A DNA stretch of 64,000 bases from a virus (lineage: Duplodnaviria; Heunggongvirae; Uroviricota; Caudoviricetes): the IMG/VR virus record IMGVR_UViG_3300024054_000549; one strand, written 5' to 3'. The translations under genes were made by a program, and so were the position numbers. The notes beneath the pieces were generated by a model, which worked only from the letters and a program-made list of their open reading frames with translations, was not told the DNA's origin and did no database searches. Below, one piece after another: positions 744 through 26,250 of this stretch (positions are counted from its first letter, which is position 1; every line of letters begins with the position of its first letter).

Positions 744-2022
744 TTGTTCTCTTTTGGAGAGAATCTAATTCGTTTTTCTTGTTCTTGATTTCTTGTTCCA
801 ATTTTTTTACCCTCTCCTCAGTTAAAGACATGATTCCCATATTCAGCAAATAATCATACGAACCATCCTTTTCTAGGATGTTAGGAATTGATTTCATATC
901 GTTAACTACATCGTTTTTTTGTCTGTTGTTAATGGTTAATTCATTACTAACTATTTTCTTGATGAATGTGTACTTGGAAAAATCATACCTGATACTTTCC
1001 GTTAATTCACTAATGAGATTTGCTTTTCGAAGATCTAAATAGTGCTTTTTAACACTGATATATTTATTAAGGATCGACTGAATATCATCGAAAACTGCTA
1101 TTTTATTGTTCTCATCTAGAACAGTATAATTTTCAGTTACGCGCTTGATTAATTTAAGCTTTGAGAGTAACGTATCTTCGTCCCACTCAGCTAACATTTT
1201 ACTGGGAATGGTAACTTCGAATTTGAAATTATCATCTTCAGATTTATCGTTATATGACTGAATGATCTTTTTGTCTTCCAAATCATCAAGAACGTCCAGA
1301 TACCCTCGAAGATCATATCCAATTGGAACCTCGGTAATCAGAACCTTATTGATTCCGACTTTTTGCACTGTGCCTTTGATGATCCATTGAGCCGAATTTT
1401 CACCTTGAATAATTTTACCCTTAAATCCCTTAAAGAAAGGAACCAACGCAGTCTTAGATTCTTTACCATTAATGGTATTTTTAATATAAGATTTGACATC
1501 TTCGGGATTTCTAGGAAGAATTTTTTGCGCGAAACCTGAAGAAACACCTTCCGAGCCATTAATCAGTAAAATAGGAAGGCTCGGAACATAGAACATTGGT
1601 TCAATTTTTTCACCCTCGAAGAACTGATGCTTTAGAATTGGCGAATCTTCTTGTTTGAAAAGGCTAAAAAACTCATCAGTGCCTGAGGCATAGATATACC
1701 TAGATGCTGAGGCTTCTTGTGAAAACCTGGTACCAAAATTACCACTCTTTTTCACTAATGGTATATTATTACTTCCGGGAAAATCTTGTCCAAGATTAAC
1801 GATAACACCATCTAGGTTACCGTGAAGATATTCTGAAAATTCAGCAACCTTCGATCCAAGTTGGGATACCTTAACCTTCTCTTTGATATTTTTTTCTAAA
1901 ATTGTATAGAGAATTTTTCGTGAGGCATTCTTTTGGCCATCGACTAAACTGGCAATTTTGCGAAGGTTATCATATGAACTGAAGTTCACATAATCCTTTT
2001 TAAAGAATTCGGTAATTTTCAT
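715..2022 (-). CDS. 52: DNA topoisomerase II medium subunit (GyrA-like), T4 gp52 homolog
   Basis: GNFGTRFSQEASASRYIYA aligns with T4 gp52 GNFGSRTVQKAAASRYIFA; overall colinear similarity. Confidence 0.9.
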   Translation of the reverse strand: MKITEFFKKDYVNFSSYDNLRKIASLVDGQKNASRKILYTILEKNIKEKVKVSQLGSKVAEFSEYLHGNLDGVIVNLGQDFPGSNNIPLVKKSGNFGTRFSQEASASRYIYASGTDEFFSLFKQEDSPILKHQFFEGEKIEPMFYVPSLPILLINGSEGVSSGFAQKILPRNPEDVKSYIKNTINGKESKTALVPFFKGFKGKIIQGENSAQWIIKGTVQKVGINKVLITEVPIGYDLRGYLDVLDDLEDKKIIQSYNDKSEDDNFKFEVTIPSKMLAEWDEDTLLSKLKLIKRVTENYTVLDENNKIAVFDDIQSILNKYISVKKHYLDLRKANLISELTESIRYDFSKYTFIKKIVSNELTINNRQKNDVVNDMKSIPNILEKDGSYDYLLNMGIMSLTEERVKKLEQEIKNKKNELDSLQKRTIENIWESEL

Positions 2023-2074
2023 AATTTCATTCCATTCATAAAATAATTATAACACCATTTTTGAATTTTGTAAA

Positions 2075-3889
2075 TTACAATTTAGCGATGCTGAAGTCAT
2101 TTTCGAGAATGTATTTCTTGCGGGGCTCTGAATCGTCCCCTAACCATTCCTCGATGATTTCTGAAGAATCAAATTCAATGATGTTAATCATTTTAGACAT
2201 TCCGTCAACCTTAACCACCTCAAGAAGATCATCGGTATTCCACGAACCGAGGCCCTTATAATAATTTGAAACTTCACCGGGTTTAAGTTCGATTTCCGAA
2301 TTCAGGTCATAGTACCAATGAACTAACTTTTCCTTTTTAGTAATACCAATTACTGGGGTTTGAAGCATTCCAATTTTCCCCTTTAGTTCTGGTAAGTACC
2401 TTTCAAAGAATCCAGTAAGTAATCCCCTAATATGAAACCCATCAAGATCTTGATCTGTAGCATAAATCACAAAGTCATAGTTCTCATTATTGATGATTTG
2501 GTACAATTCAGAGAGTTCTGTATTGGCCGTAAATTTAGACTGATGAGCTGAATAAGCGTTCAGTGGTTTACCTTTAAGGCAATAGAATCCGCATTCTTTC
2601 CTTCCGAGAACAGGCATAAGCCCACCAAGAGCAGATTGTCCTTCAACCAGGAGCAAATACTTTTTAGCACCAATGCTTGGGAAGTATTTATCTGACTTAA
2701 TTCTTTTAACTGTTTTAGTCAGGTTCTTCATTTCCTGACGTTTCTTAAGTTCTTCCTTGATCCGATAAACTTCAGTGATTGGCCCAATGATATTGTCGTT
2801 TTTGTAAATTTTGTAAACTATAGAATCAAATGGCACCGAACCAAAGTAAGCACTGATCTCGCTAGAACTGTTTGTAATCTTTTCCTTAGACTGAGAATTG
2901 AATTTCGTGTTCTTCACATTCTTAAGGAATGCAATAACCATCAATTTATTCTTAATATCACCGGGTTTGATGTCTTTGTATTTTTTAACTAACTTATCCC
3001 GGAGTTTAGATACGATACTCCCAGCAATGATGTCGATGTGTGTACCACCATCTGGAATTTTCAAACCGTTAACATAGCTGAATTGTTTAAAATCGTCATC
3101 TTCATTGGGAAGAATTGCGAATTTGTAATCTTCAGTTTCATAAATTTCGTAGTTTTCAGAAAACAGCGAAACGTACTTCTTGAATGAGTTAACATTAATT
3201 TTCACTCCGTTGAATTTAAATGTAATCTCCGGGAATGATAAACTTAGATTAATCAGACGCTGTTTAATGATGTTCTTATGAGAATCATCAATTTCTGTTA
3301 ACTTGAATTTCGACAAGTCCGGATAAAAGAGTACTGTTGTTCCTTTACCCTTAGATTTTCCGAAAGATTCTTTAAACCTTTCAGCATTATTGCTGAATGT
3401 AATTGTGTACCGTTGATTTCCATCATCCGTGGTTCCTATGAACTCTTTAGAAAAACAGTTCGTAGCGAATGAACCAACACCGTTCATACCAATTTGAGTT
3501 CTATTCTCATCGTCCTCAAAGTTCGAACCGGCTCGGGCATGTCCCCAACACAATTCTGGGTACCAATGACCTTGATTATTCTGTTTAATGGGAATGCCAG
3601 GTCCATTATCTTGAACAGACACATGGTCGTTCATGATGTGAACTTTTATCTCATCACAACCTTGAAAATTAGTCTTGATAGCCACATCAACGGAATTATC
3701 AATTATCTCGTTGATGATTTTTATCAGACCAGGAACGTATTCAATTTCCTTGTGTACGATTTTATCATTTTCGAAAATGTATTCGATAGTTTTCGTGGAA
3801 TCGACCGAACCTATGTACATGCTTGGGCGTTGAATGATATGTTCACGCTCTGTAAGTTTCTTAATCATCAAAAATTTCCTTCTTGTCAA
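2075..3889 (-). CDS. 39: DNA topoisomerase II large subunit (GyrB-like ATPase), T4 gp39 with gp60 portion fused
   Basis: N-terminal EHIIQRPSMYIGS GHKL ATPase signature; 604 aa = gp39+gp60 length; true start possibly Met8 (3868). Confidence 0.9.
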   Translation of the reverse strand: MTRRKFLMIKKLTEREHIIQRPSMYIGSVDSTKTIEYIFENDKIVHKEIEYVPGLIKIINEIIDNSVDVAIKTNFQGCDEIKVHIMNDHVSVQDNGPGIPIKQNNQGHWYPELCWGHARAGSNFEDDENRTQIGMNGVGSFATNCFSKEFIGTTDDGNQRYTITFSNNAERFKESFGKSKGKGTTVLFYPDLSKFKLTEIDDSHKNIIKQRLINLSLSFPEITFKFNGVKINVNSFKKYVSLFSENYEIYETEDYKFAILPNEDDDFKQFSYVNGLKIPDGGTHIDIIAGSIVSKLRDKLVKKYKDIKPGDIKNKLMVIAFLKNVKNTKFNSQSKEKITNSSSEISAYFGSVPFDSIVYKIYKNDNIIGPITEVYRIKEELKKRQEMKNLTKTVKRIKSDKYFPSIGAKKYLLLVEGQSALGGLMPVLGRKECGFYCLKGKPLNAYSAHQSKFTANTELSELYQIINNENYDFVIYATDQDLDGFHIRGLLTGFFERYLPELKGKIGMLQTPVIGITKKEKLVHWYYDLNSEIELKPGEVSNYYKGLGSWNTDDLLEVVKVDGMSKMINIIEFDSSEIIEEWLGDDSEPRKKYILENDFSIAKL

Positions 3890-3935
3890 ACGCGTTCATT
3901 ATATTATATGGAATTAAAAATGTACACTCAAAAGT

Positions 3936-3943
3936 TATAAATA
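3936..3943 (+). promoter_or_regulatory. T4-type late promoter TATAAATA
   Basis: exact TATAAATA 28 nt upstream of ATG 3972. Confidence 0.6.
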
Positions 3944-3971
3944 GTTAAAAAATTTTCAACAGGACTAACAA

Positions 3972-5702
3972 ATGTTCCATCATGGCACAATAAGAAAATA
4001 CACGGCTGCATTACTCGACATATTCAATGATCTTGAGATTCAGCACAAAACCAGTTCTGGTGAATTACTTAGTAAAAAAATCCCAATAAGATATTCTACC
4101 AGAGAAAAGGCTACAATTTTCGATGAGTACTCAACCGAGCAATTACTTTCTGGAAATTATTCAATTCTTCCCAGAGCAAGTCTCGCTATGGCGTCGATGG
4201 CGAAATCTGAGCAAAGGGTAACAAATAAGAACACGAAAATAAATCAGTTCAAAACTGATTCAACTATAGAATTTTCATATAATTCTGTACCTTACGAATT
4301 CTCATATGAAATTATCATTCAATGCAGAGGCATGAATGAGGTAACACAGATAATAGAACAAATAGCTCCTAAATTTAACCCAACTCTTAATGTAGATATT
4401 TGGGACGCACAAAATCTAAGTGAGCCAACTAGAGTACCTATAAAATTAACAGATATTCAGTTCTCGTCAGAAGAATATGAAGAACTTTCATCTAACATAT
4501 TCACCATTACGATATCTATAGCATTAATAGGTAATTTATATCCTCCAATAAAATCTCAGGAACGAGTTCAAACGTTCATGATGATGATTAATGGCTTAGA
4601 TGGCGATTATTATACCCAAAAAGAAATGCTAGAATGGGATGTTAATCTTGATGGGTACCTTTTTAATGAAACCTTAGATAATTCTATAGATGGCACTGAA
4701 TACCCAGGAACGTCCGTACCACCAAAACCATCAGGAACGGCATTAACAGCATCGAGAATAAGTGTTCTTGATATTGGTGATTTCTTTACCGGAACAAACT
4801 TAGAGGAAATTCTTCAAGAACTTGGCTTAGAATCAGCTAAACATGAATTAAAATCAAATAAGGGCGTACCACACGGCTATGCACCACTCGATGATTATGG
4901 AAGAATACCTGCTAATTTTTTACCATCTTATGTCGATGATGTCCTAGAGTACGATACCGTTTCATTATTTCCTGAAATTGGTGAAACCGGTAAGATATAT
5001 GTGGATTTGGAATTCAACGAGACATATAGATGGGGTGGTTCTAGCTATATCTATATAACTTCAGGTGCAGTTGATTCAGTTGCTGGAAAAACTGGTGTTG
5101 TGACTTTAGCTAAAGCCGACGTTGGACTTGGCAATGTAGATAATACATCCGACCTGAATAAGCCTATCTCAACTGCTACTCAAACAGCTCTAGATGGTAA
5201 ATCAGGTACAAGCCATACACATAGTGATGCCACCACAACTGCTTCTGGATTAATGTCAAGTACAGATAAATCTAAGCTAGATGGTATTGCTTCTGGGGCA
5301 ACAGCTTATGTGCATCCAAGTGCAGATGGTTCATTACATGTACCAGCTACTGGAACAACTAATGCTGGTAAAGTTCTAACTGCTGGTGCAACAGCTGGTT
5401 CATTGTCATGGACTACTTTACCTGCTGATGCTGTTTCTTCAGTTGCTGGAAAAACTGGTGCAGTAACCTTAGCCAAAGGTGATGTTGGACTTGGTAATGT
5501 AGATAATACTTCTGACCTAAGCAAACCTATATCAACAGCTACTCAAACAGCTCTTGATTCTAAAATTAGCACATCTGGTGTCGCTGGTGATATTCTTTAT
5601 CATAATGGCACCACATTTGTTAAATTAGCAAAAGGCACTAATGGTCAAATTCTAAGTTTAGTAAATGGTCTTCCAGCTTGGGTTAACCCAGTCATTGGTT
5701 GA
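3972..5702 (+). CDS. tail fiber/baseplate-associated structural protein with two phage tail-fibre repeats
   Basis: two copies of SVAGKTG(A/V)VTLAK(A/G)DVGLGNVDNTSDL(N/S)KPISTATQTALD (Phage_fiber_2-like GLGNVDN motif); late promoter upstream; terminator downstream. Confidence 0.65.
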   Translation: MFHHGTIRKYTAALLDIFNDLEIQHKTSSGELLSKKIPIRYSTREKATIFDEYSTEQLLSGNYSILPRASLAMASMAKSEQRVTNKNTKINQFKTDSTIEFSYNSVPYEFSYEIIIQCRGMNEVTQIIEQIAPKFNPTLNVDIWDAQNLSEPTRVPIKLTDIQFSSEEYEELSSNIFTITISIALIGNLYPPIKSQERVQTFMMMINGLDGDYYTQKEMLEWDVNLDGYLFNETLDNSIDGTEYPGTSVPPKPSGTALTASRISVLDIGDFFTGTNLEEILQELGLESAKHELKSNKGVPHGYAPLDDYGRIPANFLPSYVDDVLEYDTVSLFPEIGETGKIYVDLEFNETYRWGGSSYIYITSGAVDSVAGKTGVVTLAKADVGLGNVDNTSDLNKPISTATQTALDGKSGTSHTHSDATTTASGLMSSTDKSKLDGIASGATAYVHPSADGSLHVPATGTTNAGKVLTAGATAGSLSWTTLPADAVSSVAGKTGAVTLAKGDVGLGNVDNTSDLSKPISTATQTALDSKISTSGVAGDILYHNGTTFVKLAKGTNGQILSLVNGLPAWVNPVIG

Positions 5703-6129: not shown

Positions 6130-8061
6130 TTAACCGCCAATGATTTCACTAAAAGAATTAGTTCCAGCATTGGTGAATTTAAGATGTATAAATTCAGCAA
6201 CATATGTTGGTTTAATGTAAATATCAACAACTAGTTGATTTCTTGAAATTACATCTGGTGTATTATTAGATGTATCGCAAATAACCAAAAATTCCTGAAT
6301 ACCTCTTCCAGCTTGAACAGAACCTAAGAATGGTTTTATCATTGATAGAATTCTATTTCTTGTGAAATTATCGTTAAATTCCATGACTTGGTACTTAGCC
6401 ATTTTGCTCAATGATCTCTCTAATGTATTAAAGAGACCTCTCACGTTTGCACGATCGAATGAACTTGGCTTATCAAGTAAAGTCTTTTGACCCCAGACTA
6501 CGTTACCTTGACCTGGGAACGAAACGATTGGGTTAATTCCATTTTTGTACAGAAGATCTCTATGGCCTTGAGTTGGATTGAATGCTAATTTCTTAACGTT
6601 TCCAATCTGACCACGTTCGAGACCAGCTGAAGCCCACCATGATGCTCTTGTCGTACTTGTTTGAGCACGCAAACCAGCAACGTCACCGGCTATATTAACC
6701 CATCTGTTTTTATCGTTGTACCGATCATATTGATACTTGTAATTACCACAAGCAACGATGAACATGTTGTTATAATTCAAAGAACCGGTTTGTCTCCAGT
6801 CAATCAGTTTTCCAACAGCTTCTGAAGATTTTTTACCAACAACATCACCGTAATTAGCACCGATAAATCCTAAGCAATCTTTACGAGTGTTGCACAATGA
6901 AACAGCTGAAGCACCTGAATCTAGTTCGTTAGCAATAACAATATCAATATCTACTGATTCTTTATTATTCCAAAGATCATAAGCGTTCATAAGATCATCA
7001 GCCTGAATATCAGAATCTAATGAACCGTATAGCTTAACTGTTGAACCTGCAACGCCATTAACTGAGAAACAATAGTTTTTGATATCTTCAGCATTACCTG
7101 TATTATCTTTAACAAAGATTATACTTGACTGTGTGTTAATGACTGATTCAATATATGTTGATTTACCATTGAAGTCTTTAGCTGATGGATTAAAATCAAC
7201 TGTAAAGATTTCTTTAATAGAATCACCAAGTTTAACAACAATACCAATCTCTGAACCAGTTGGGAAGTACTCGAATAGATCCTTAACTAAAATTCCATCA
7301 AATGCTTCTGTTGGAGTAGCAGTTTTGAATGCTGCTGGTTTAGCGATAGCAATTTCAATGTCTTGAGCCCAATTTCCTGGGTTTCTTGACATGAACTTAA
7401 TTTTCGCTTTATCATTTGTCATAGCAATTGATTGCTCTTTAGATTCAAAATCTGAAGCATTAAGAATTGTTATGTTCTTTTCAAAATATGCTGATGAAGA
7501 TTTAATATCTGTTCCAGAAGTTGAAACAGCTTCGAACACACCATTTTTTGAAACAATAACTGAATTAACAACGTCACCGTTTACTAATGTGTCTTGAATA
7601 TTTCTATCAAGTGTAAGTTTCTTCAACGCAGAATCAACAGCTGTAACTTCATAGAATGTTCCAGAAGTATCTGAACCACCAAAAGAAATTAACATATTAA
7701 CTGAATAATTAGCACCATCAGAAATTGAAACAACGTTAGTAGTACCGGCTGTTACACCAGCTGTTACAGTTTCACCAGAAATTGGTGTTGCTGCGCCATT
7801 GATGTTAGATGCCCTAGCTACATATAACTTGTTTCCGTACTGTAAAAAATTATAAGCCTGATACCAGTCGTTATAATTTGAGTCACCTGGTAAACCATAG
7901 AATGCAATTAGTTCATCAACTGAAGTAATTAGCATATAAGAATCAACGGGACCCTTATCAAAGTTACCAGCAAAAACGGCTATACTATTAGATACAGATG
8001 GGGCTATTGTACTCGCATCGATTTCGGTAATATATACGCCGGGTGAAAGCATTTCTGCCAT
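6130..8061 (-). CDS. 18: tail sheath protein, T4 gp18 homolog
   Basis: MAEMLSPGVYITEID.. matches the T4 gp18 N-terminus MTLLSPGIELKE; NFLQYGN shared; RBS AAGGAG before ATG at 8061 (ORF track extends to 8115). Confidence 0.9.
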   Translation of the reverse strand: MAEMLSPGVYITEIDASTIAPSVSNSIAVFAGNFDKGPVDSYMLITSVDELIAFYGLPGDSNYNDWYQAYNFLQYGNKLYVARASNINGAATPISGETVTAGVTAGTTNVVSISDGANYSVNMLISFGGSDTSGTFYEVTAVDSALKKLTLDRNIQDTLVNGDVVNSVIVSKNGVFEAVSTSGTDIKSSSAYFEKNITILNASDFESKEQSIAMTNDKAKIKFMSRNPGNWAQDIEIAIAKPAAFKTATPTEAFDGILVKDLFEYFPTGSEIGIVVKLGDSIKEIFTVDFNPSAKDFNGKSTYIESVINTQSSIIFVKDNTGNAEDIKNYCFSVNGVAGSTVKLYGSLDSDIQADDLMNAYDLWNNKESVDIDIVIANELDSGASAVSLCNTRKDCLGFIGANYGDVVGKKSSEAVGKLIDWRQTGSLNYNNMFIVACGNYKYQYDRYNDKNRWVNIAGDVAGLRAQTSTTRASWWASAGLERGQIGNVKKLAFNPTQGHRDLLYKNGINPIVSFPGQGNVVWGQKTLLDKPSSFDRANVRGLFNTLERSLSKMAKYQVMEFNDNFTRNRILSMIKPFLGSVQAGRGIQEFLVICDTSNNTPDVISRNQLVVDIYIKPTYVAEFIHLKFTNAGTNSFSEIIGG

Positions 8062-17495: not shown

Positions 17496-17855
17496 TGGTG
17501 GACTCGGCGGGAATCGAACCCGCGTCCGAAAGCCCTCTACAGGCAGTTCTACATACTTAGTCCGGTCATTTGGTTTTAACCTGCGCGACGCCGGCCGAAC
17601 AGGCTGCGAACAGGCGATCCACCTTAGTTTTAGCGTTGCGACAAGTGACCCGGCGCATTGCGAGTTTCCTGATGTTACCGTACTGCCGGTTGCCCGGCCC
17701 AGCCCGGAAACTGGCTGGTGTACGGTCTGGCATTAAGCGGCCAGAGCGAAACGCTCGTCGTTGGCGTTTGTTTGTTTCCAGTAGATTTACGAGGGAACTG
17801 GTCCTCGGTATGCACTACGCTGCTTCGCGACCCCCGTCGAAACCAGGTCGAGCCC
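17496..17855 (-). ncRNA. ssrA: tmRNA (ssrA), full length, one-piece
   Basis: 5' GGGCUCGACCUGGUUUCGACGGGGGUCGCGAAGCAGCGUAGUGCAUACCGAGG.. and 3' ..GGACGCGGGUUCGAUUCCCGCCGAGUCCACCA; acceptor stem GGGCUCG/CGAGUCC with G3-U pair; tag reading frame GCC AAC GAC GAG CGU UUC GCU CUG GCC GCU UAA (ANDERFALAA); ~58% GC in a ~33% GC genome. Confidence 0.9.
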
Positions 17856-19889: not shown

Positions 19890-20854
19890 TTAAAATCTTT
19901 CAAAGTATTAATTATTTTCTTAACTTCATCCATAAGTTTTTGCATTGAAACATTATTTATTTTATAAGTAAATGCATTCATATGTCCTATAGATTCAGTA
20001 CCAGTTAATTCAAGTCTTAGACTATTTTTCTGCTCTGGTGTATACGCTGAAGATTCTTTAATTCTAATCCTAACGATTCCACTAGGTGTAATACCAATAA
20101 CAACATCTTGCCCTTTTTTCATTTCTGAAATTAAGATTTGATTGAACCAATTCTGAACAAAAGCAACGGTGATATTGTCGAATCTGTGAATTAAATTTCT
20201 TCGCTCAAAATCAGCAATTTCACTATTATATTTTAATTTAATTTCATTAATCTTATCAGAATAATCCTCTGGAAGTTCAAAATTTCGTTGATAAATCTCA
20301 TCAATAAGACTATCTAAATTATTGTACTGAACCTTCAGCCAAAAGTACTCATTCAAATCTTGTGAATCATCGAAATTTTTATTCTCAGTCTGCCACAGAT
20401 CATAAACATCAATCAGATATGTTAATTCATCTAAGTTCTTATTTTTACCGGTATTTCCAAAGTACTCATTACAAAGTTTTGCACCAGATTTAGATTTATC
20501 GTGCAGTACTTTCATATTCTTGAATTCATCCCAGAAATTATCTGGATATAAATGATGATCTATGAGAGTGCATTTACCTATAGTATTAAGTTCAATTAGA
20601 GAATCTTTTGAATCAGAAAACGAAACATCAGCAATAAGAATATGAATATTCTCATAATCCTTACAATATTCTTTAATTTCTTGAACGATTTCCTTTATAT
20701 TAGCATAATTAGTGTAGAAATATTTCTTCTTGATACTCGGAAATTTATATTCTACATTTAGAGCACATCCAAGTGCATCTAAATCATTATGCGTAAGAAC
20801 AATCAGTTCGTTTAAATTATTTCTTTGATTCATATTCTTCGTACATTTTAACAA
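19886..20854 (-). CDS. DHH-family phosphoesterase (RecJ/NrnA-like)
   Basis: motifs THNDLDALG and IDHH. Confidence 0.6.
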   Translation of the reverse strand: MLKCTKNMNQRNNLNELIVLTHNDLDALGCALNVEYKFPSIKKKYFYTNYANIKEIVQEIKEYCKDYENIHILIADVSFSDSKDSLIELNTIGKCTLIDHHLYPDNFWDEFKNMKVLHDKSKSGAKLCNEYFGNTGKNKNLDELTYLIDVYDLWQTENKNFDDSQDLNEYFWLKVQYNNLDSLIDEIYQRNFELPEDYSDKINEIKLKYNSEIADFERRNLIHRFDNITVAFVQNWFNQILISEMKKGQDVVIGITPSGIVRIRIKESSAYTPEQKNSLRLELTGTESIGHMNAFTYKINNVSMQKLMDEVKKIINTLKDFK

Positions 20855-21194
20855 TTCGATTCAATTCTGTTCTATCCATTAATTCACAATATTCTTTGGC
20901 TTTTTGAATTGATATCTTAAAGAAATCAGAAATGTAACCAATCATTTTTTCTTCGTTCTCTGATTCTGCTTTTGGATAAGGGATATATTTTACCTTCCCT
21001 GCGAATGATTTCTTAATCAAAAAGTACTGATTCTCAACTGGGATATCAAAATACATATTTATGAGATTCGCAGCACCAATAGTATAAGGATTTCCAGATA
21101 GCCATTTACAGAATATAAAAGATGGTATTTTTTGAATTTCTTCTAATTCTGGTGTTTTCTTTAGATCTAACGCTGACGTTATAATTTTGAACAT
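20817..21194 (-). CDS. hypothetical protein (possibly clamp-loader small subunit-like)
   Basis: ORF immediately downstream of pol C-part; weak resemblance only. Confidence 0.3.
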   Translation of the reverse strand: MFKIITSALDLKKTPELEEIQKIPSFIFCKWLSGNPYTIGAANLINMYFDIPVENQYFLIKKSFAGKVKYIPYPKAESENEEKMIGYISDFFKISIQKAKEYCELMDRTELNRIVKMYEEYESKK

Positions 21195-22312
21195 TACCAG
21201 TCCTCTAACTTTTCAGTTTCTTTATATAGATCATAACCCAATGGCTCAACCATCAGTTCTAGAGGTTTAAGAAAATTCTTGACGAATTGTTCATCGTAAT
21301 TAACCAAATCTCCTATCTCTGAAATGAAGTTATCATTAGTATAAGCGATAATTTCTGTATCGAATTTGTTAGGTTCAACTAGAAAAAGTCGTTTGCATTT
21401 ATCACCAGCTTGAATCGGGGCGTATTTATTTTCAATTGAATTCTTTTTGATGTACAAATTATGTTTAATGGCAGCCCTTGAGCCAAATGGAACACCTTTA
21501 TCAGAAAGATCGTAATCAATTCTAGATACTGCTCCAACTGAAGCTATGTCGTTTAAATCAGAATTCTTAAATTCTGATTTGATTTTTCCAATCCAATCTT
21601 TAAGATTACTTTCATTACCGTCGAGAATAATTGGAATAGATTCTTTAAGATATTTTTTAGACCATTTCGGTGTTGAACTTTTAATGATTTCTAAACCTGT
21701 GACCTTGATTTTCGGCTCAGAATCAGCATAACGAGTTCCCTCATTATCCCTTAGTCTAATATAGTATTTTTTCTTAGCTGTAAATACCCCAACATCGGCA
21801 ATAGCTTCTCGTTCTACACCAATTTTATCTTTGTTATAAGCGTTTAATTCAGATGCAAAGTCATCGATAGTTTTTTTGATAACTGGTTGAATGATTTTTT
21901 TCTCAAATGCATCAGCCCAATCGACATATTCATTTATACTTAAGTTTGGGTTATTTACCTTGAACCTTTCCATAAATGGGTTAATTGTATAATAAACGGA
22001 ATCAGTATCTCCACTTACGATGTACGTTCCATCTATTTTGAGCAGATTTTGGAGCGTACTCTCAATATTGTTAGCTAATTTTCGAATAAAGTACCGACCA
22101 TTACCTGTAATAGCGGCAGCCATATCTTCGTTGAATAATGAGAACCATCTATTCGCCATAGCGCCATACAGAGAGTTCATAATGGTCTTTAGAGCTAACT
22201 GATTCGTTTTATACAGCGACTCCTTAGATTCTGCTTCAGCGTACAATTTCTTAAGTTCAGAATCTGATAATTCCCTGAGTTCAGATTCAGTGTATTCAAG
22301 AACGTCATTCAT
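21194..22312 (-). CDS. 43: DNA polymerase (family B) C-terminal part, gp43B (motifs B and C)
   Basis: NSLYGAMAN (KxxxNSxYG) and VSGDTDSVYY (DTDS); N-terminus aligns to T4 gp43 residues just after its motif A region. Confidence 0.9.
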   Translation of the reverse strand: MNDVLEYTESELRELSDSELKKLYAEAESKESLYKTNQLALKTIMNSLYGAMANRWFSLFNEDMAAAITGNGRYFIRKLANNIESTLQNLLKIDGTYIVSGDTDSVYYTINPFMERFKVNNPNLSINEYVDWADAFEKKIIQPVIKKTIDDFASELNAYNKDKIGVEREAIADVGVFTAKKKYYIRLRDNEGTRYADSEPKIKVTGLEIIKSSTPKWSKKYLKESIPIILDGNESNLKDWIGKIKSEFKNSDLNDIASVGAVSRIDYDLSDKGVPFGSRAAIKHNLYIKKNSIENKYAPIQAGDKCKRLFLVEPNKFDTEIIAYTNDNFISEIGDLVNYDEQFVKNFLKPLELMVEPLGYDLYKETEKLEDW

Positions 22313-22520
22313 TTAGTAACCCAATCGTTCGGACAATTCTATTGATGTATTCAAGTTGTTTCATTTTTCGCTCGGCCCTTGAGTATTTAGAATAACATTC
22401 TATACAAAAGTATGTTAATCTTTTCGATCGCGCGTGAAAAGAAAACTCAGTTTCCTTTTTGTTCTCATAACAGCATTGACAAAATTTTAATTTGTCACTT
22501 GTTCCTCTAGCTATTTTCAT
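22305..22520 (-). CDS. small CxxC..CxxC zinc-ribbon-like protein inserted at the polymerase split
   Basis: FCQCCYEN....FCIECYSKY; start overlaps stop of 43A (ATGA), end overlaps start of 43B. Confidence 0.45.
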   Translation of the reverse strand: MKIARGTSDKLKFCQCCYENKKETEFSFHARSKRLTYFCIECYSKYSRAERKMKQLEYINRIVRTIGLLNE

Positions 22521-24106
22521 TGTTTTCTTTCATTTAGAATAGAACCAATAAGAACTTTTCGTTTTTCATAATCGAACATAATCTTTTTCGATTTTTTACG
22601 ATCGTCATAAATTTCTTGAACCATTTCAGGAATCATACCAAGTTTATCTTTAGAAAAAACAGCACCATTAATACCTAATGAATAGTTGTATTTCTTTATA
22701 AGCTCAGTTACTGCTCCAAAGATATTCTGATCCAATTCTAATCTGGCACCCTCGTCTTGATCATTAAAATATGACAAGATAAGATCCCGCAAATCGCTCG
22801 GAAGCTTATACTTAGGGACAAAAGTCTCAGGACTCATATTAAATCCGACCATACCCAATAATGGGTACATGGAATTAACGTCACCAGAAAGAATCCATTT
22901 GTGTCTACCTTTAACTGGATCCCTAACATAACCGCCCACAACAGATGGTTGAGAATTATCTGACCTAGGAGGCATAACCCGTTTATTCAGCATGGATTTA
23001 TTCATGATGTACTGACTCCATGGTTTAACTGTTCCCATGGCATCGCTAATCTGAACGCCCATTTTTTCGGCAATCATATTCATAAGAACAGTAAGATTCT
23101 TAGAATCATCAATTTTCTTAATAAGATATGTATCTTTTACACCATAATAAACAAAGTCAGAGTGAGCTAATTCCTTTACCTCTTCATTTAGTGAATTAAT
23201 TGCAGCGTTATAAATTTTTGAAGATTTTTGTTCATCAGTTGGATTGTTCGGTACAATATATTTTCCAGTATAGAAATCATCAAAACTTGCATATTCTGTA
23301 TGCTGTACCTTATTTTCCTTTAACTCGATTTCAGCAATAGTATCCAAAGAATATGATGGCCTAGGGTCAAGAACGAATTTTTTATACACAATCATTAAAT
23401 CGGTATAAAAATGACCATCAGCATTGAAATTAAATTCTATTTTACCGTCCTGAACAGCTTCAGAATATGAAACATTCCCATAATTCGATAAATCGTTAAC
23501 ATTCATTCCCAAATTTTTAATTCGATTGTAAATGAATGGGAAGTCGAATCCAGCACCGTTCCAAGCGTAAATGATCAATGGATCTAATTTTTTAAAGAAT
23601 GAAATGTAAGTTTTGAGTAACTGAACTTCATCCTTGCAATTGATGTACTCAATCTCGTAAGGGAACTCATAATCACTCTGATGTTTCCAATCTTTCAATC
23701 CTAATGCGAACATTTTGTTCTCTTTAGAATCGAAAAATTGCATTAGAGTAATCTGTTGATCGGCTTTCTCGGGCAATGGAAAACCATTTTTAGATCGTGT
23801 TTCAATATCTAGGTACCAGATTCTTGGTGAAGAATTGTAAGCATTCTTATTCCAATAATTATCACGGATATTTCTATAAATTGGATCGAGGAATCCGTAA
23901 GAATCTCTTCCCTCTTTAGCATTACCTTGTTTTTTATCTAAAGTAATATCTTCATCAAGGATGAATTTATAAAGACCCCTCGAGCTTGGCTCGTACCATT
24001 CATACGGTAACGTTATTTCTGATTTAACAGATTTTTTAAGTTCAGTGTCGTAATATCTCTCGAAAAATGAGAATTTGTTCTTATATGCTGACTCGAATAA
24101 TTTCAT
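22517..24106 (-). CDS. 43: DNA polymerase (family B) N-terminal part, gp43A (3'-5' exonuclease domain + motif A)
   Basis: YAWNGAGFDFPFIYNRI ~ T4 gp43 FTGWNIEGFDVPYIMNRV (Exo II); SGDVNSMYPLLG ~ SFDLTSLYPSII (motif A). Confidence 0.9.
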   Translation of the reverse strand: MKLFESAYKNKFSFFERYYDTELKKSVKSEITLPYEWYEPSSRGLYKFILDEDITLDKKQGNAKEGRDSYGFLDPIYRNIRDNYWNKNAYNSSPRIWYLDIETRSKNGFPLPEKADQQITLMQFFDSKENKMFALGLKDWKHQSDYEFPYEIEYINCKDEVQLLKTYISFFKKLDPLIIYAWNGAGFDFPFIYNRIKNLGMNVNDLSNYGNVSYSEAVQDGKIEFNFNADGHFYTDLMIVYKKFVLDPRPSYSLDTIAEIELKENKVQHTEYASFDDFYTGKYIVPNNPTDEQKSSKIYNAAINSLNEEVKELAHSDFVYYGVKDTYLIKKIDDSKNLTVLMNMIAEKMGVQISDAMGTVKPWSQYIMNKSMLNKRVMPPRSDNSQPSVVGGYVRDPVKGRHKWILSGDVNSMYPLLGMVGFNMSPETFVPKYKLPSDLRDLILSYFNDQDEGARLELDQNIFGAVTELIKKYNYSLGINGAVFSKDKLGMIPEMVQEIYDDRKKSKKIMFDYEKRKVLIGSILNERKQ

Positions 24107-24127
24107 CGATTGACTCCAAAAATGATA

Positions 24128-25312
24128 TTATAAAGCAATTTTCTTTCGAGATACAGCTTTTATTACCTTAGAAATACCATCTTCAAGCAAATATGTTGCT
24201 AAGGAATTATCAATTCTCTTATTCAATTGTTTGGAAATTTCAGAGCCAAGAATTGATGGAAGAATTTCATGGGATGTAAAAATCTTATTGAAGTATTCCT
24301 TGTTTAAATTATGCGATTCCCAAATCCTTAAAGCTTCTTTTTTATCTAAATGTCTAAGCTCAAGAATATCAAATAGTCTTCCTTTTCTGAGTAATGCTGT
24401 GTCGATATTCTCATATGATTGGTTAGTTGTAATGATGAATTTCGTTCGGTATTTTTCAACACCATCTGTAAAACTAAGAAATTGATTAAGAAATAAATTC
24501 TTTTTAATATCTTCATGTGAAGAAACTTCAGAATCGCGCTTAGTTAACATATAATCAAGATCATCAATTATAACAAGATCATCTTGACTTGATTCCAAAT
24601 TTCGCCAGAACTTATCTTCAGAAAGAACATCAACACTTTTAACATAAACAATACTTAAGTACTGATTCTCAAGAGAAGGATTATCAATCCTTTTATCATA
24701 AGGAAGTTTATCAGTATTGCTATAAGCATGTTTGATGGCTAAAGATGCCATTTTTGATTTACCAAGACCAGGTTCTCCAACTAAGAGTAAAATATTTTCA
24801 TTGCCAGTAAAGAATTGATCGAACATCACATCAGTATTGATGTAAGGATAATACAATTCAGAAATGTACTCAAAGTCTTCGTACTTAATATTTTTAATTC
24901 GTTCAACTAATTTTCCATTATCCATGTAAAATGTTTTTACAAAGATATCAGCTTGAGTATCTTCTGTTTTGTACCGTTTGTAAATTTTCCATAATTTTTC
25001 AGCATATTCTTCTGAAACAGCATATGGAGTAACAAAAATTTCAATCGAATTACCAACGGCATAAAGTTTATAAAACTCTGAAGTGTACCTAATAAGAAAA
25101 TTATTCTTACTGTCAGAAAAGTCATATTCCGTTAGAACACAAAGTTCAGCATTGACATCAGAAATGAATTTCTTGAAATTGTTGTATTTAAGTGAAAAAT
25201 TAGGAAATGAGCATACATACCCAGATTTAGTATCAGAATAAGCACTTAAAGCTTCTTCAAAAGAAAAATCTTCGACAGAATGATTGATATTTAGGATTAA
25301 GTCTTTTTGCAT
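24128..25312 (-). CDS. AAA-family ATPase
   Basis: Walker A GEPGLGKS, Walker B LVIIDDLD, SRH-like LLRKGRLFD. Confidence 0.65.
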   Translation of the reverse strand: MQKDLILNINHSVEDFSFEEALSAYSDTKSGYVCSFPNFSLKYNNFKKFISDVNAELCVLTEYDFSDSKNNFLIRYTSEFYKLYAVGNSIEIFVTPYAVSEEYAEKLWKIYKRYKTEDTQADIFVKTFYMDNGKLVERIKNIKYEDFEYISELYYPYINTDVMFDQFFTGNENILLLVGEPGLGKSKMASLAIKHAYSNTDKLPYDKRIDNPSLENQYLSIVYVKSVDVLSEDKFWRNLESSQDDLVIIDDLDYMLTKRDSEVSSHEDIKKNLFLNQFLSFTDGVEKYRTKFIITTNQSYENIDTALLRKGRLFDILELRHLDKKEALRIWESHNLNKEYFNKIFTSHEILPSILGSEISKQLNKRIDNSLATYLLEDGISKVIKAVSRKKIAL

Positions 25313-25314
25313 GA

Positions 25315-26250
25315 TTATTTAAGTTTTAACCGCATTAATTCTGTACAACATGCTGCAAGATTAAGATTTTTATCTCTCACTGAATCAGACATGTGTTGAT
25401 ATTTAGCTGCTATAATAACAACATCTGGATAAGAATTCTGTGGAAAATATTTTGACGCATTTCCATAGATATAAGAGAACATATTATCTGGGCTATTAAG
25501 TTTATTGATCTGAACGATCATTTCGGTGAATGTACTAGGAGAAACAAGTTCCATGATTTTTCCAAATACATTGATATCGTCAAGTTCATGTTCACTAACT
25601 GAAAATACTCCATCTTTCGAGTACTTCTGCAATGCTCCAACCATACTACGGATTCGTGGGTAATATGTATTGATTACCGGAATCAGAGCCTTAGGATCGT
25701 ATTGAATTTTTTCATTATCGAGAATGAATCTTAGTCGCTCGAATATCGGTTTAATCATTTCCGATTTATCGAATGAATTGAAATCATGAACCTCAAGACG
25801 ATCTAACAAAGGCTGAATGATTTTTTCTTTATAATTCCCAGTAAAAATGAATCGACAGTTCTCACTGAATTCATCAATAAATCCTCGAAATGCCGCCTGA
25901 CCATCTTTACTGAAATGATCAAATTCATCCATGACAACGATTTTTATGTTATCATCGAAGCTTGTTTGCGATGCGAATTTACTAACCTTCCCGCGGAGAA
26001 CGTCGATACCTTTCTCCATCGAAGCATTTATCCAAAGAGCCTCGCCGTTGATTTCCTTAATGATCGCATGAGCCGTCGAGCTTTTACCCGTGCCAGGATT
26101 AGATGAAAATAAACCGATGTTAGGAATATCTTGAGTTTTAACATAATTCAATAACTTTTCTTTAATTTGTTGTGGAATAATCAAATCTTCGATACAGCTT
26201 GGTTTGTATCGTTCATAAAATACACTCTTCGATAGGTCGAACTTTTTCAT
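25315..26250 (-). CDS. 44: clamp loader large subunit, T4 gp44 homolog
   Basis: YKPSCIEDLI..SNPGTGKSS..FDDNIKIVVMDEFD ~ T4 gp44 YRPSTIDECI..SPGTGKTT..FDGRQKVIVIDEFD. Confidence 0.85.
   Translation of the reverse strand: MKKFDLSKSVFYERYKPSCIEDLIIPQQIKEKLLNYVKTQDIPNIGLFSSNPGTGKSSTAHAIIKEINGEALWINASMEKGIDVLRGKVSKFASQTSFDDNIKIVVMDEFDHFSKDGQAAFRGFIDEFSENCRFIFTGNYKEKIIQPLLDRLEVHDFNSFDKSEMIKPIFERLRFILDNEKIQYDPKALIPVINTYYPRIRSMVGALQKYSKDGVFSVSEHELDDINVFGKIMELVSPSTFTEMIVQINKLNSPDNMFSYIYGNASKYFPQNSYPDVVIIAAKYQHMSDSVRDKNLNLAACCTELMRLKLK

Follow-up and report, generated by a model that had tools for sequence, protein, structure and literature searches.

Results and Discussion

Organisation of the locus

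The stretch of DNA analysed here, 64,000 nucleotides (nt) of the IMG/VR virus record IMGVR_UViG_3300024054_000549 (Caudoviricetes), is called the window throughout. It carries a T4-like family-B DNA polymerase gene, the homologue of T4 gp43, which is divided into two cistrons, PolB-N and PolB-C. A small open reading frame (ORF) of 71 amino acids (aa), referred to below as the mini-gene or mini-cistron, lies in the division and overlaps both polymerase parts. The three cistrons and their two junctions are as follows.

22517..24106, minus strand: PolB-N cistron (529 aa), encoding the N-terminal domain, the 3'-5' exonuclease, the beginning of the palm including motif A, and the first of the two fingers helices
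22305..22520, minus strand: mini-cistron, 71 aa, isoelectric point (pI) 9.5; predicted four-cysteine zinc ribbon, ERK motif, then a long C-terminal helix; type A
21194..22312, minus strand: PolB-C cistron (372 aa), encoding the second fingers helix, which carries motif B, the remaining palm with motif C, and the thumb
22517..22520, minus strand: ATGA, in which the TGA stop of PolB-N overlaps the ATG start of the mini-cistron; junction of the termination-reinitiation type, without a strong Shine-Dalgarno (SD) sequence upstream
22305..22312, minus strand: ATGAATGA, an 8-nt overlap of the mini-cistron stop and the PolB-C start; second coupling junction

The initial annotation, made from the DNA letters alone, had described a gp43 homologue split into an N part of 529 aa with the exonuclease and motif A and a C part of 372 aa with motifs B and C, and the ORFs, the Pfam matches and our alignment all agree with it. 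PolB-N matches the Pfam domain DNA_pol_B_exo1 (E 1.9e-20) and the start of DNA_pol_B (positions 20-142), and the Exo motif DIET can be read in its translation; PolB-C matches DNA_pol_B (E 6.9e-15). For the position of the split, the halves were aligned by MAFFT with T4 gp43, with the unsplit polymerase of Campylobacter phage CP220 and with the split polymerase of Aeromonas phage Aes012. In this alignment, motif A (DVNSMYPL) in PolB-N and motifs B (KTIMNSLYG) and C (SGDTDS) in PolB-C all align to those of T4. The ends of the two halves meet at about residues 509-512 of T4 gp43, which bears out the earlier claim that they fall at adjacent positions. In the RB69 polymerase the fingers span residues 472-571 (PMC3012046); the cut is in the middle of the fingers, and therefore at the tip of their helical hairpin. 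Moreover, the 43A/43B junction of Aes012 lies no more than 5 alignment columns from that of the window. The comparison with known polymerases thus firmly supports a family-B replicase made as two polypeptides, with the break in the loop that tops the fingers hairpin.

Junctions between the cistrons and integrity of the split

The C-terminus of PolB-N reads ...KRKVLIGSILNERKQ*, and its stop codon is shared with the start of the mini-cistron. The ATGA and ATGAATGA junctions confirm that the 71-aa ORF, with its two cysteine pairs, overlaps both polymerase parts, as had been noticed from the start. Overlap or near-abutment of the PolB-N stop and the mini-gene start was also seen in relatives. A GGAG is found 8 nt 5' of the PolB-N ATG; in the window sequence the SD sequences of the mini-cistron and of PolB-C are weak, so that neither has a strong ribosome-binding site, and no terminator-like site was found on the minus strand between the three cistrons. 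Because starts and stops overlap, the two downstream cistrons lack strong ribosome-binding sites and no terminator intervenes, we infer that translation of the three cistrons is coupled, which would make the mini-protein in amounts tied to the two polymerase halves.

The stop codons that separate the halves could have been produced by a sequencing or assembly error, a cause that the initial annotation had left to be checked. The window is part of a 99-kb metagenome contig from ENA. In a 3.1-kb contig of a second assembly (Logan, SRR7617225) the layout is the same and the N, mini and C (partial) proteins are identical to those of the window, and for this reason a frameshift or assembly artefact is excluded. 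The same split is found in >25 related loci, including those of independently sequenced cultured phages, and we consider the error explanation refuted.

The halves might also be rejoined into a single polymerase, whether by splicing of the RNA or of the protein, by ribosomal bypass or by programmed frameshifting. This would fit the fact that PolB-N and PolB-C share one frame in the window and in the Vibrio phage pv27, with the mini-ORF in the -1 frame, and that in relatives other parts of the gene hold inteins and an element resembling a group I intron (see below). On the other side, an Rfam scan of positions 20500..25000 at E<=1 revealed no intron in the insert, its sole match being a spurious small nucleolar RNA outside it, and Pfam found no intein domain in PolB-N, the mini-protein or PolB-C; the absence of an intron or intein signature reported earlier is thereby upheld. 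The ends of the N and C parts abut on T4 gp43 with no spare residues, leaving no room for the halves of a split intein. Seven stop codons interrupt the polymerase frame across the 207-nt insert, which itself encodes a conserved protein in its own frame. The frame relationships of N and C vary among the loci of other relatives, so that no conserved recoding signal is present. A programmed frameshift (-1 and then +1) was rejected as a candidate on the same ground, since the frame common to the halves in the window and pv27 is not kept elsewhere. Taken together, these scans show that nothing legible in the DNA rejoins the polymerase halves at the RNA or protein level, and we regard a rejoined polymerase as extremely improbable.

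The mini-gene encodes a conserved small protein

The cysteines of the mini-ORF are arranged as C14-x-C16-C17 and C39-x-x-C42, of which C14, C17, C39 and C42 form the ribbon set and C16 is additional. An exhaustive HMMER search of 1.84 billion representatives yielded a family of 34 clusters (E<1e-3), nearly all of them stand-alone proteins of 53-71 aa; no natural fusion of the mini-protein to a polymerase half was found among these representatives. Across 31 members only the start methionine and the four cysteines are invariant, with the arginine (R51) of a Y[TS]xxERK motif nearly so, and the conserved cysteines and ERK motif span members that are <30% identical. Most members are basic (pI ~9). 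A second subtype, type B (PMERHRY...CPxC...CxxC), fills the same site at other loci. Types A and B are homologous, as indicated by profile-profile comparison (probability 91%, E 1e-6), with which reciprocal matches of hidden Markov models agree.

The mini-ORF is no chance ORF, because its homologues hold the same position in relatives and its ratio of nonsynonymous to synonymous divergence (dN/dS) is <0.3. In informative pairs of relatives this ratio is 0.11-0.27 for the mini-gene, compared to 0.04-0.09 for the flanking polymerase. Purifying selection thus marks the 71-aa gene, labelled hypothetical protein in GenBank, as truly protein-coding. It does not differ from its flanks in GC content, and it is the sole member of its family in the 64-kb window.

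An AlphaFold2 model computed with the family alignment has a predicted local distance difference test score (pLDDT) of 86 and consists of short beta-strands that bear the cysteines (residues 11-39) and of helices at 40-45 and 48-69. The mini-protein is basic and is predicted to combine a zinc ribbon with an amphipathic helix. Searches of Pfam (E<=10), NCBIfam and PDB sequences with the mini-protein or its alignment gave no credible match, and word-indexed protein searches with the mini-protein alignments returned family members only, without HNH-fused relatives. When IMG/VR was scanned for a degenerate pattern, the mini-protein alignment gave no loci, whereas the PolB-C alignment did. The only long match of the mini-protein profile is P0014, a metagenomic protein of 477 aa with seven tandem CxxC...F...DGL...CxxC zinc-ribbon units, whose repeats suggest that a related ribbon module can serve as an arrayed nucleic-acid-binding unit.

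Likeness of the mini-protein to endonuclease accessory modules

Comparison with PHROG profiles linked the mini-protein to phage endonucleases. The HNH endonuclease profile phrog_2255 was matched by 15 of 31 type-A and 6 of 7 type-B members (best E 2.5e-7), and further matches were obtained to phrog_2633, phrog_1035 (endonuclease VII), phrog_2340 (endonuclease) and phrog_5558 (Lar-like). Each match covers a sub-region of ~50 residues of a longer profile; individually the matches are weak, and they are consistent over both subtypes. Similarly, ~14 of the top 50 structural neighbours in BFVD are annotated as HNH, EndoVII or restriction endonucleases. The N-terminal CxxC...CxxC ribbon module of phage HNH and EndoVII proteins, as well as Lar-like proteins, appear to share with the mini-protein the spacing of the four cysteines and a predicted beta-hairpin ribbon. 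Unlike these modules, the mini-protein stands alone, lacks a His-Me/HNH catalytic motif and has its own Y[TS]xxERK motif and C-terminal helix. No conserved histidine or asparagine of nuclease catalysis is present across the 31 members, and Pfam found no nuclease domain in the mini-ORF. Because the PHROG matches come without catalytic residues, the mini-protein looks like a stand-alone version of the accessory zinc ribbon of HNH and EndoVII proteins.

Judging from these profile matches, the mini-gene is most likely a fragment kept from endonuclease-type mobile elements, which have invaded the intercistronic gap time and again. We rejected its identification as a free-standing homing endonuclease gene (HEG) of the HNH or GIY-YIG kind, given that it has no nuclease motif, encodes only 71 aa and is always present in the crown clade described below.

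Relatives of the locus and history of the split

No match was obtained when the locus was compared by megablast with 50,697 phage records, and relatives were reached at the protein level only. The nearest cultured relatives, at ~62-66% protein identity, are the Vibrio phages Va1, phiKT1024, phiTY18, pv27, TDDLMA and SRILMA, with genomes of 191-196 kb; next come the Campylobacter CP220-type phages, at 35% identity and with an unsplit gene. The same split, with a four-cysteine ORF of 61-64 aa in it, was present in the five Vibrio phages whose loci were examined (those other than SRILMA). The same arrangement was found in 14 IMG/VR loci (56-70% PolB-C identity) and in further metagenomic contigs. 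The PolB-C of the window is 63-70% identical to the PolB-C parts of closer relatives and 56% identical to that of locus L023 (L numbers denote the relatives' loci; L002 is Va1 and L008 is TDDLMA). Each of the 16 distinct lineages sampled from the crown clade has the mini-gene inside the split. In the paper that describes pv27, the halves are listed as "two DNA polymerases" (PMC12063606).

The history of the split was examined with a bootstrapped neighbour-joining tree of the N parts. The clade of the window is monophyletic (100%) and sister to the unsplit CP220 at 100% support, while Aes012 groups with T4. Since Aes012 stands with T4 and the unsplit CP220 lies between, the fingertip split of this clade arose independently of that of the Aeromonas phages; descent from one split ancestor shared with the Aeromonas and Acinetobacter phages was considered and is contradicted by the tree. 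By this phylogeny, a marine clade that includes the Vibrio phages Va1 and pv27 holds an independent split.

Lineages branch off within the clade in the order L044, L036, L046, L039, the window, the Va1 group and the rest, with bootstraps of 96, 95, 96 and 85. L044 is split at the identical position with a spacer of 46 nt, and L046 likewise with an ATGA overlap. As these basal loci are split with no mini-gene family member within +/-10 kb, the split is older than the presence of the mini-gene in it, and the mini-gene is dispensable for the split. A third arrangement was found in L036 (1403..1612), L037 (478..687) and L038 (2257..2466), in which the mini-gene is directly upstream of PolB-N, with a 27-nt spacer containing AAAGGAG, and the polymerase halves abut through a GTGA overlap.

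The two subtypes of the mini-gene are exchanged between close relatives. L031, of type A, is nested among type-B loci with 100% support; it shares 85-87% identity with L013 and L018 in the polymerase halves, but only 24-29% in the mini-proteins. This nesting, together with the divergence of the mini-proteins, indicates that the A/B cassette was swapped. Moreover, between L020 and L021 the mini-gene (3789..4004 and 3798..4004, respectively) shows a synonymous divergence (dS) of 1.4 versus 0.5-0.6 in the flanking polymerase halves, a comparison based on few sites, which hints at recombinational replacement within one subtype.

Cargo, introns and inteins in and around the split gene

Other elements occupy the same gap in relatives. 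HNH-type HEGs, recognised by matches to NUMOD3 or HNH_4, lie between the mini-gene and PolB-C in L002 (5793..6521), L008 (5793..6524) and L023 (1345..2130), and in Va1 the mini-gene and the HNH homing endonuclease gene are joined by an ATGA overlap. The HNH HEG is present in Va1 and TDDLMA and absent in pv27 and phiKT1024, the polymerases of which are ~98% identical; this is the classic presence/absence pattern of homing. Between PolB-N and the mini-gene, L012 carries a 529-aa ORF with DUF7487 and a Mom-like region (1874..3463), and L025 carries ORFs of 185 and 106 aa of unknown function. The mini-gene is kept whether the cargo precedes it (L012, L025) or follows it (Va1, L023).

A second break of PolB-C, of ~220-260 nt, is found at motif B (LINSL / YGAL) in Va1 (L002 6688..6949) and TDDLMA (L008 ~6712..6934). 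In Va1 this insert matches a group I intron model over its full length, at a sub-threshold score (23.8 bits, E 0.002), and GenBank splits the flanks of this Va1-type gap into separate DNA polymerase coding sequences. Inteins (Pfam Intein_splicing) are inserted at motif C (GDTDS) of PolB-C in L024 (2530..3192), in L025 (2512..3186) and in many of the proteins P0037-P0101. Across the clade, one gene thus holds a split, a mini-gene, an HEG, an intron-like element, inteins and swapped cassettes.

Another arrangement was seen in L043 (2190..4666), where a PolB-C head with an intein is preceded by a 197-nt non-coding spacer and a 537-aa gene. The latter is no polymerase N part (19% identity, no Pfam match), and the N part must be elsewhere on this 164-kb contig.

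Comparison with other split genes

Bicistronic gp43 genes (43A/43B) split at the fingertip were previously described in Aeromonas phages 25, 31, 44RR and 65 and in Acinetobacter phages 133 and Acj9 (Petrov et al. 2006, 2010, as reviewed in PMC2988022 and PMC3061061). They have the same cut as the window, with the exonuclease and motif A in the N part and motifs B and C in the C part, and their intercistronic space is variable and invaded by HEGs. In the Aeromonas phages this space is an untranslated spacer (53 nt in Aes012) or holds a seg-like HEG, whereas in the window it holds a zinc-ribbon cistron; a conserved cistron of this kind was not reported for the split Aeromonas and Acinetobacter phages. 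The gp43A and gp43B proteins of Aeromonas phage 25 co-purify and are active (PMC2988022). Pfu polymerase split near the fingertip is fully active, and an AUGA junction supports its coupled translation from one message (PMC3061061); this engineered enzyme differs from the window in being artificial and archaeal, and in having two cistrons with no intervening gene. By analogy with the phage 25 proteins and split Pfu, the polymerase of the window is probably a two-subunit enzyme, as the initial annotation had proposed.

Genes broken into pieces by free-standing HEGs provide a second comparison. In the nrdA-a/mobE/nrdA-b genes of Aeh1 and in T4 gene 60/mobA/39, an essential enzyme gene is broken at a conserved HNH-HEG site, and the pieces regain their function by assembling non-covalently. 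Sequences that the element left behind in Aeh1 turned into tails through which the fragments interact (PMC3045599), a precedent for element-derived sequence being co-opted in assembly. Unlike the Aeh1 locus, the window has no nuclease, and what resembles the element there is a 71-aa protein of its own, not tails on the fragments; also unlike genes in pieces of this type, the basal relatives of the window show the split persisting with nothing in it. Finally, the OM43 phages MEP401 and MEP402 have a split DNA polymerase with a small ORF of unknown function (PMC10580990); they belong to another phage lineage and are likened here by description only.

Split gp43 genes are already known, and an independent second phage lineage with such a split is an incremental addition. 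What is new is that the same small zinc-ribbon gene is carried in the gap across deep divergence. In the literature searched, no mention was found of a conserved zinc-ribbon cistron, of its two swappable alleles or of its apparent ancestry in an endonuclease module.

Possible roles of the mini-protein

As the best explanation we propose a three-cistron T4-like replication operon with an accessory mini-protein, and taken as a whole we give it an even chance. PolB-N and PolB-C would assemble non-covalently into an active polymerase, as Aeromonas gp43A/43B and split Pfu do. The mini-protein, supplied through translational coupling, may assist the split polymerase in trans as an accessory partner: either its C-terminal helix would dock on the open fingertip, or its ribbon would bind nucleic acid there. 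In both cases it would improve assembly or template handling and would not be strictly required. This accessory-partner step is tentative and falls somewhat short of an even chance, while we hold the other steps to be highly probable at the least. The mini-gene appears to be linked to the polymerase rather than to the site, because L036-38 keep it in the operon outside the split and because it stays constant beside changing cargo. Its overlapping start and stop signals and weak SD sequences likewise speak for a role in trans that is tied to the polymerase.

Several observations weigh against this explanation. An obligatory subunit is ruled out, since the Aeromonas phages are split around a short untranslated spacer and since L044/L048 and L046/L047, split at the same position, contain no family member within +/-10 kb. 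The A/B exchange left no visible change in the tail of PolB-N or the head of PolB-C, as would hardly be expected of an interface in close co-evolution. Some family members lie at loci without a polymerase gene (L040-42, L034-35). With respect to the proposed ancestry, the PHROG E-values (1e-4 to 2.5e-7) are modest for a cysteine-rich 70-mer. A stronger version of the proposal, in which the mini-protein would be the third subunit of a heterotrimeric family-B replicase, namely a domesticated homing-endonuclease DNA-binding domain that caps or extends the fingertip, seems unlikely to us. If it were true, the mini-protein could adjust fidelity, the choice of deoxynucleotides or the tolerance of lesions, or link the polymerase to a further component of the replisome, and the exchangeable A/B alleles would represent adaptation to host or competitor rather than drift.

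The mini-gene may instead serve mobile elements, as a nuclease-less DNA-binding module kept in a safe-harbour gap of an essential and strongly conserved gene, beside a plain two-subunit polymerase. It could then be a targeting or immunity factor in competition between phages, or a co-conversion passenger of homing by neighbouring HEGs. Much of the history of the locus is consistent with this: the split predates the mini-gene in it, as the basal L044 and L046 indicate; HNH HEGs have settled at this site in Va1, TDDLMA and L023, and other cargo in L012 and L025; the cassette was swapped between close polymerases, with L031 inside the type-B clade; the dS of the mini-gene exceeds that of its flanks in L020/L021; the protein resembles HNH/EndoVII accessory ribbons; and members of the family sit at unrelated loci. 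However, no loss was seen in the 16 crown lineages, the gene is under purifying selection, and a purely selfish remnant without a nuclease has no known mechanism of drive. Moreover, L036-38 keep the mini-gene in the polymerase operon even though their split site is empty, and its GC content does not set it apart from its flanks. We regard this as the main rival explanation, if a rather unlikely one. A further alternative is that the mini-ORF is a translated spacer only, the functionless peptide of a decaying remnant whose translation carries ribosomes to the reinitiation of PolB-C. The overlapping stop and start signals and weak SD sequences of the window would suit this, as would the finding that an AUGA junction suffices for coupled expression of split Pfu (PMC3061061). 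It is nevertheless very improbable, given that four cysteines and the ERK motif are conserved at <30% identity, that dN/dS is 0.11-0.27 and that the fold prediction is confident. In addition, type-B loci have gaps of 6-28 nt ahead of PolB-C and pv27 has its own GGAGG there, and L046 and L036 couple N to C directly with no mini-gene between them.

The two options raised at the outset for the mini-ORF, a remnant of a mobile element or an accessory subunit, thus both find support, in the match to the HNH/EndoVII ribbon and in purifying selection, and they are not exclusive. Should the mini-protein bind to the polymerase, a domain from a mobile element would clearly have been recruited into a replicative polymerase as one of its subunits, and it would give natural access to the fingers, the domain that governs the choice of nucleotide. 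Should it not bind, the clade would be a well-sampled natural experiment in how an intercistronic gap within an essential gene turns into a lasting refuge for selfish genes. In either case, the cultured Vibrio phages pv27, phiKT1024 and Va1, which have this arrangement, make a direct test possible.

Neighbouring genes and other features of the window

The three cistrons are flanked by further replication genes, and a full-length gene for transfer-messenger RNA (tmRNA) is also present in the window.

20817..21194, minus strand: small clamp-loader subunit, gp62-like, 125 aa, downstream of PolB-C; phrog_225, clamp loader of DNA polymerase (1.2e-17)
24128..25312, minus strand: AAA+ ATPase, 394 aa, between the gp44-like gene and PolB-N; phrog_11907
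25315..26250, minus strand: gp44-like clamp-loader large subunit, 311 aa, upstream; Pfam AAA and Gp44_lid
17496..17855, minus strand: tmRNA gene, full-length; Rfam RF00023 (207 bits, E 3.5e-83); ARAGORN tag ANDERFALAA

The upstream neighbours are syntenic with those in Vibrio phages Va1 and pv27 (loci L001, L002, L007 and L008). The 394-aa AAA+ ATPase is conserved in Va1-like phages and is annotated in Va1 as similar to gp016 of Campylobacter phage NCTC12673. At the position of this gene, T4 has regA and gene 62 instead.

The tmRNA gene adjoins a gene for a DnaB-like helicase, and SmpB is encoded in the relative L047 (3020..3445). Given the tmRNA in the window and SmpB in L047, this group of phages may have its own trans-translation system.

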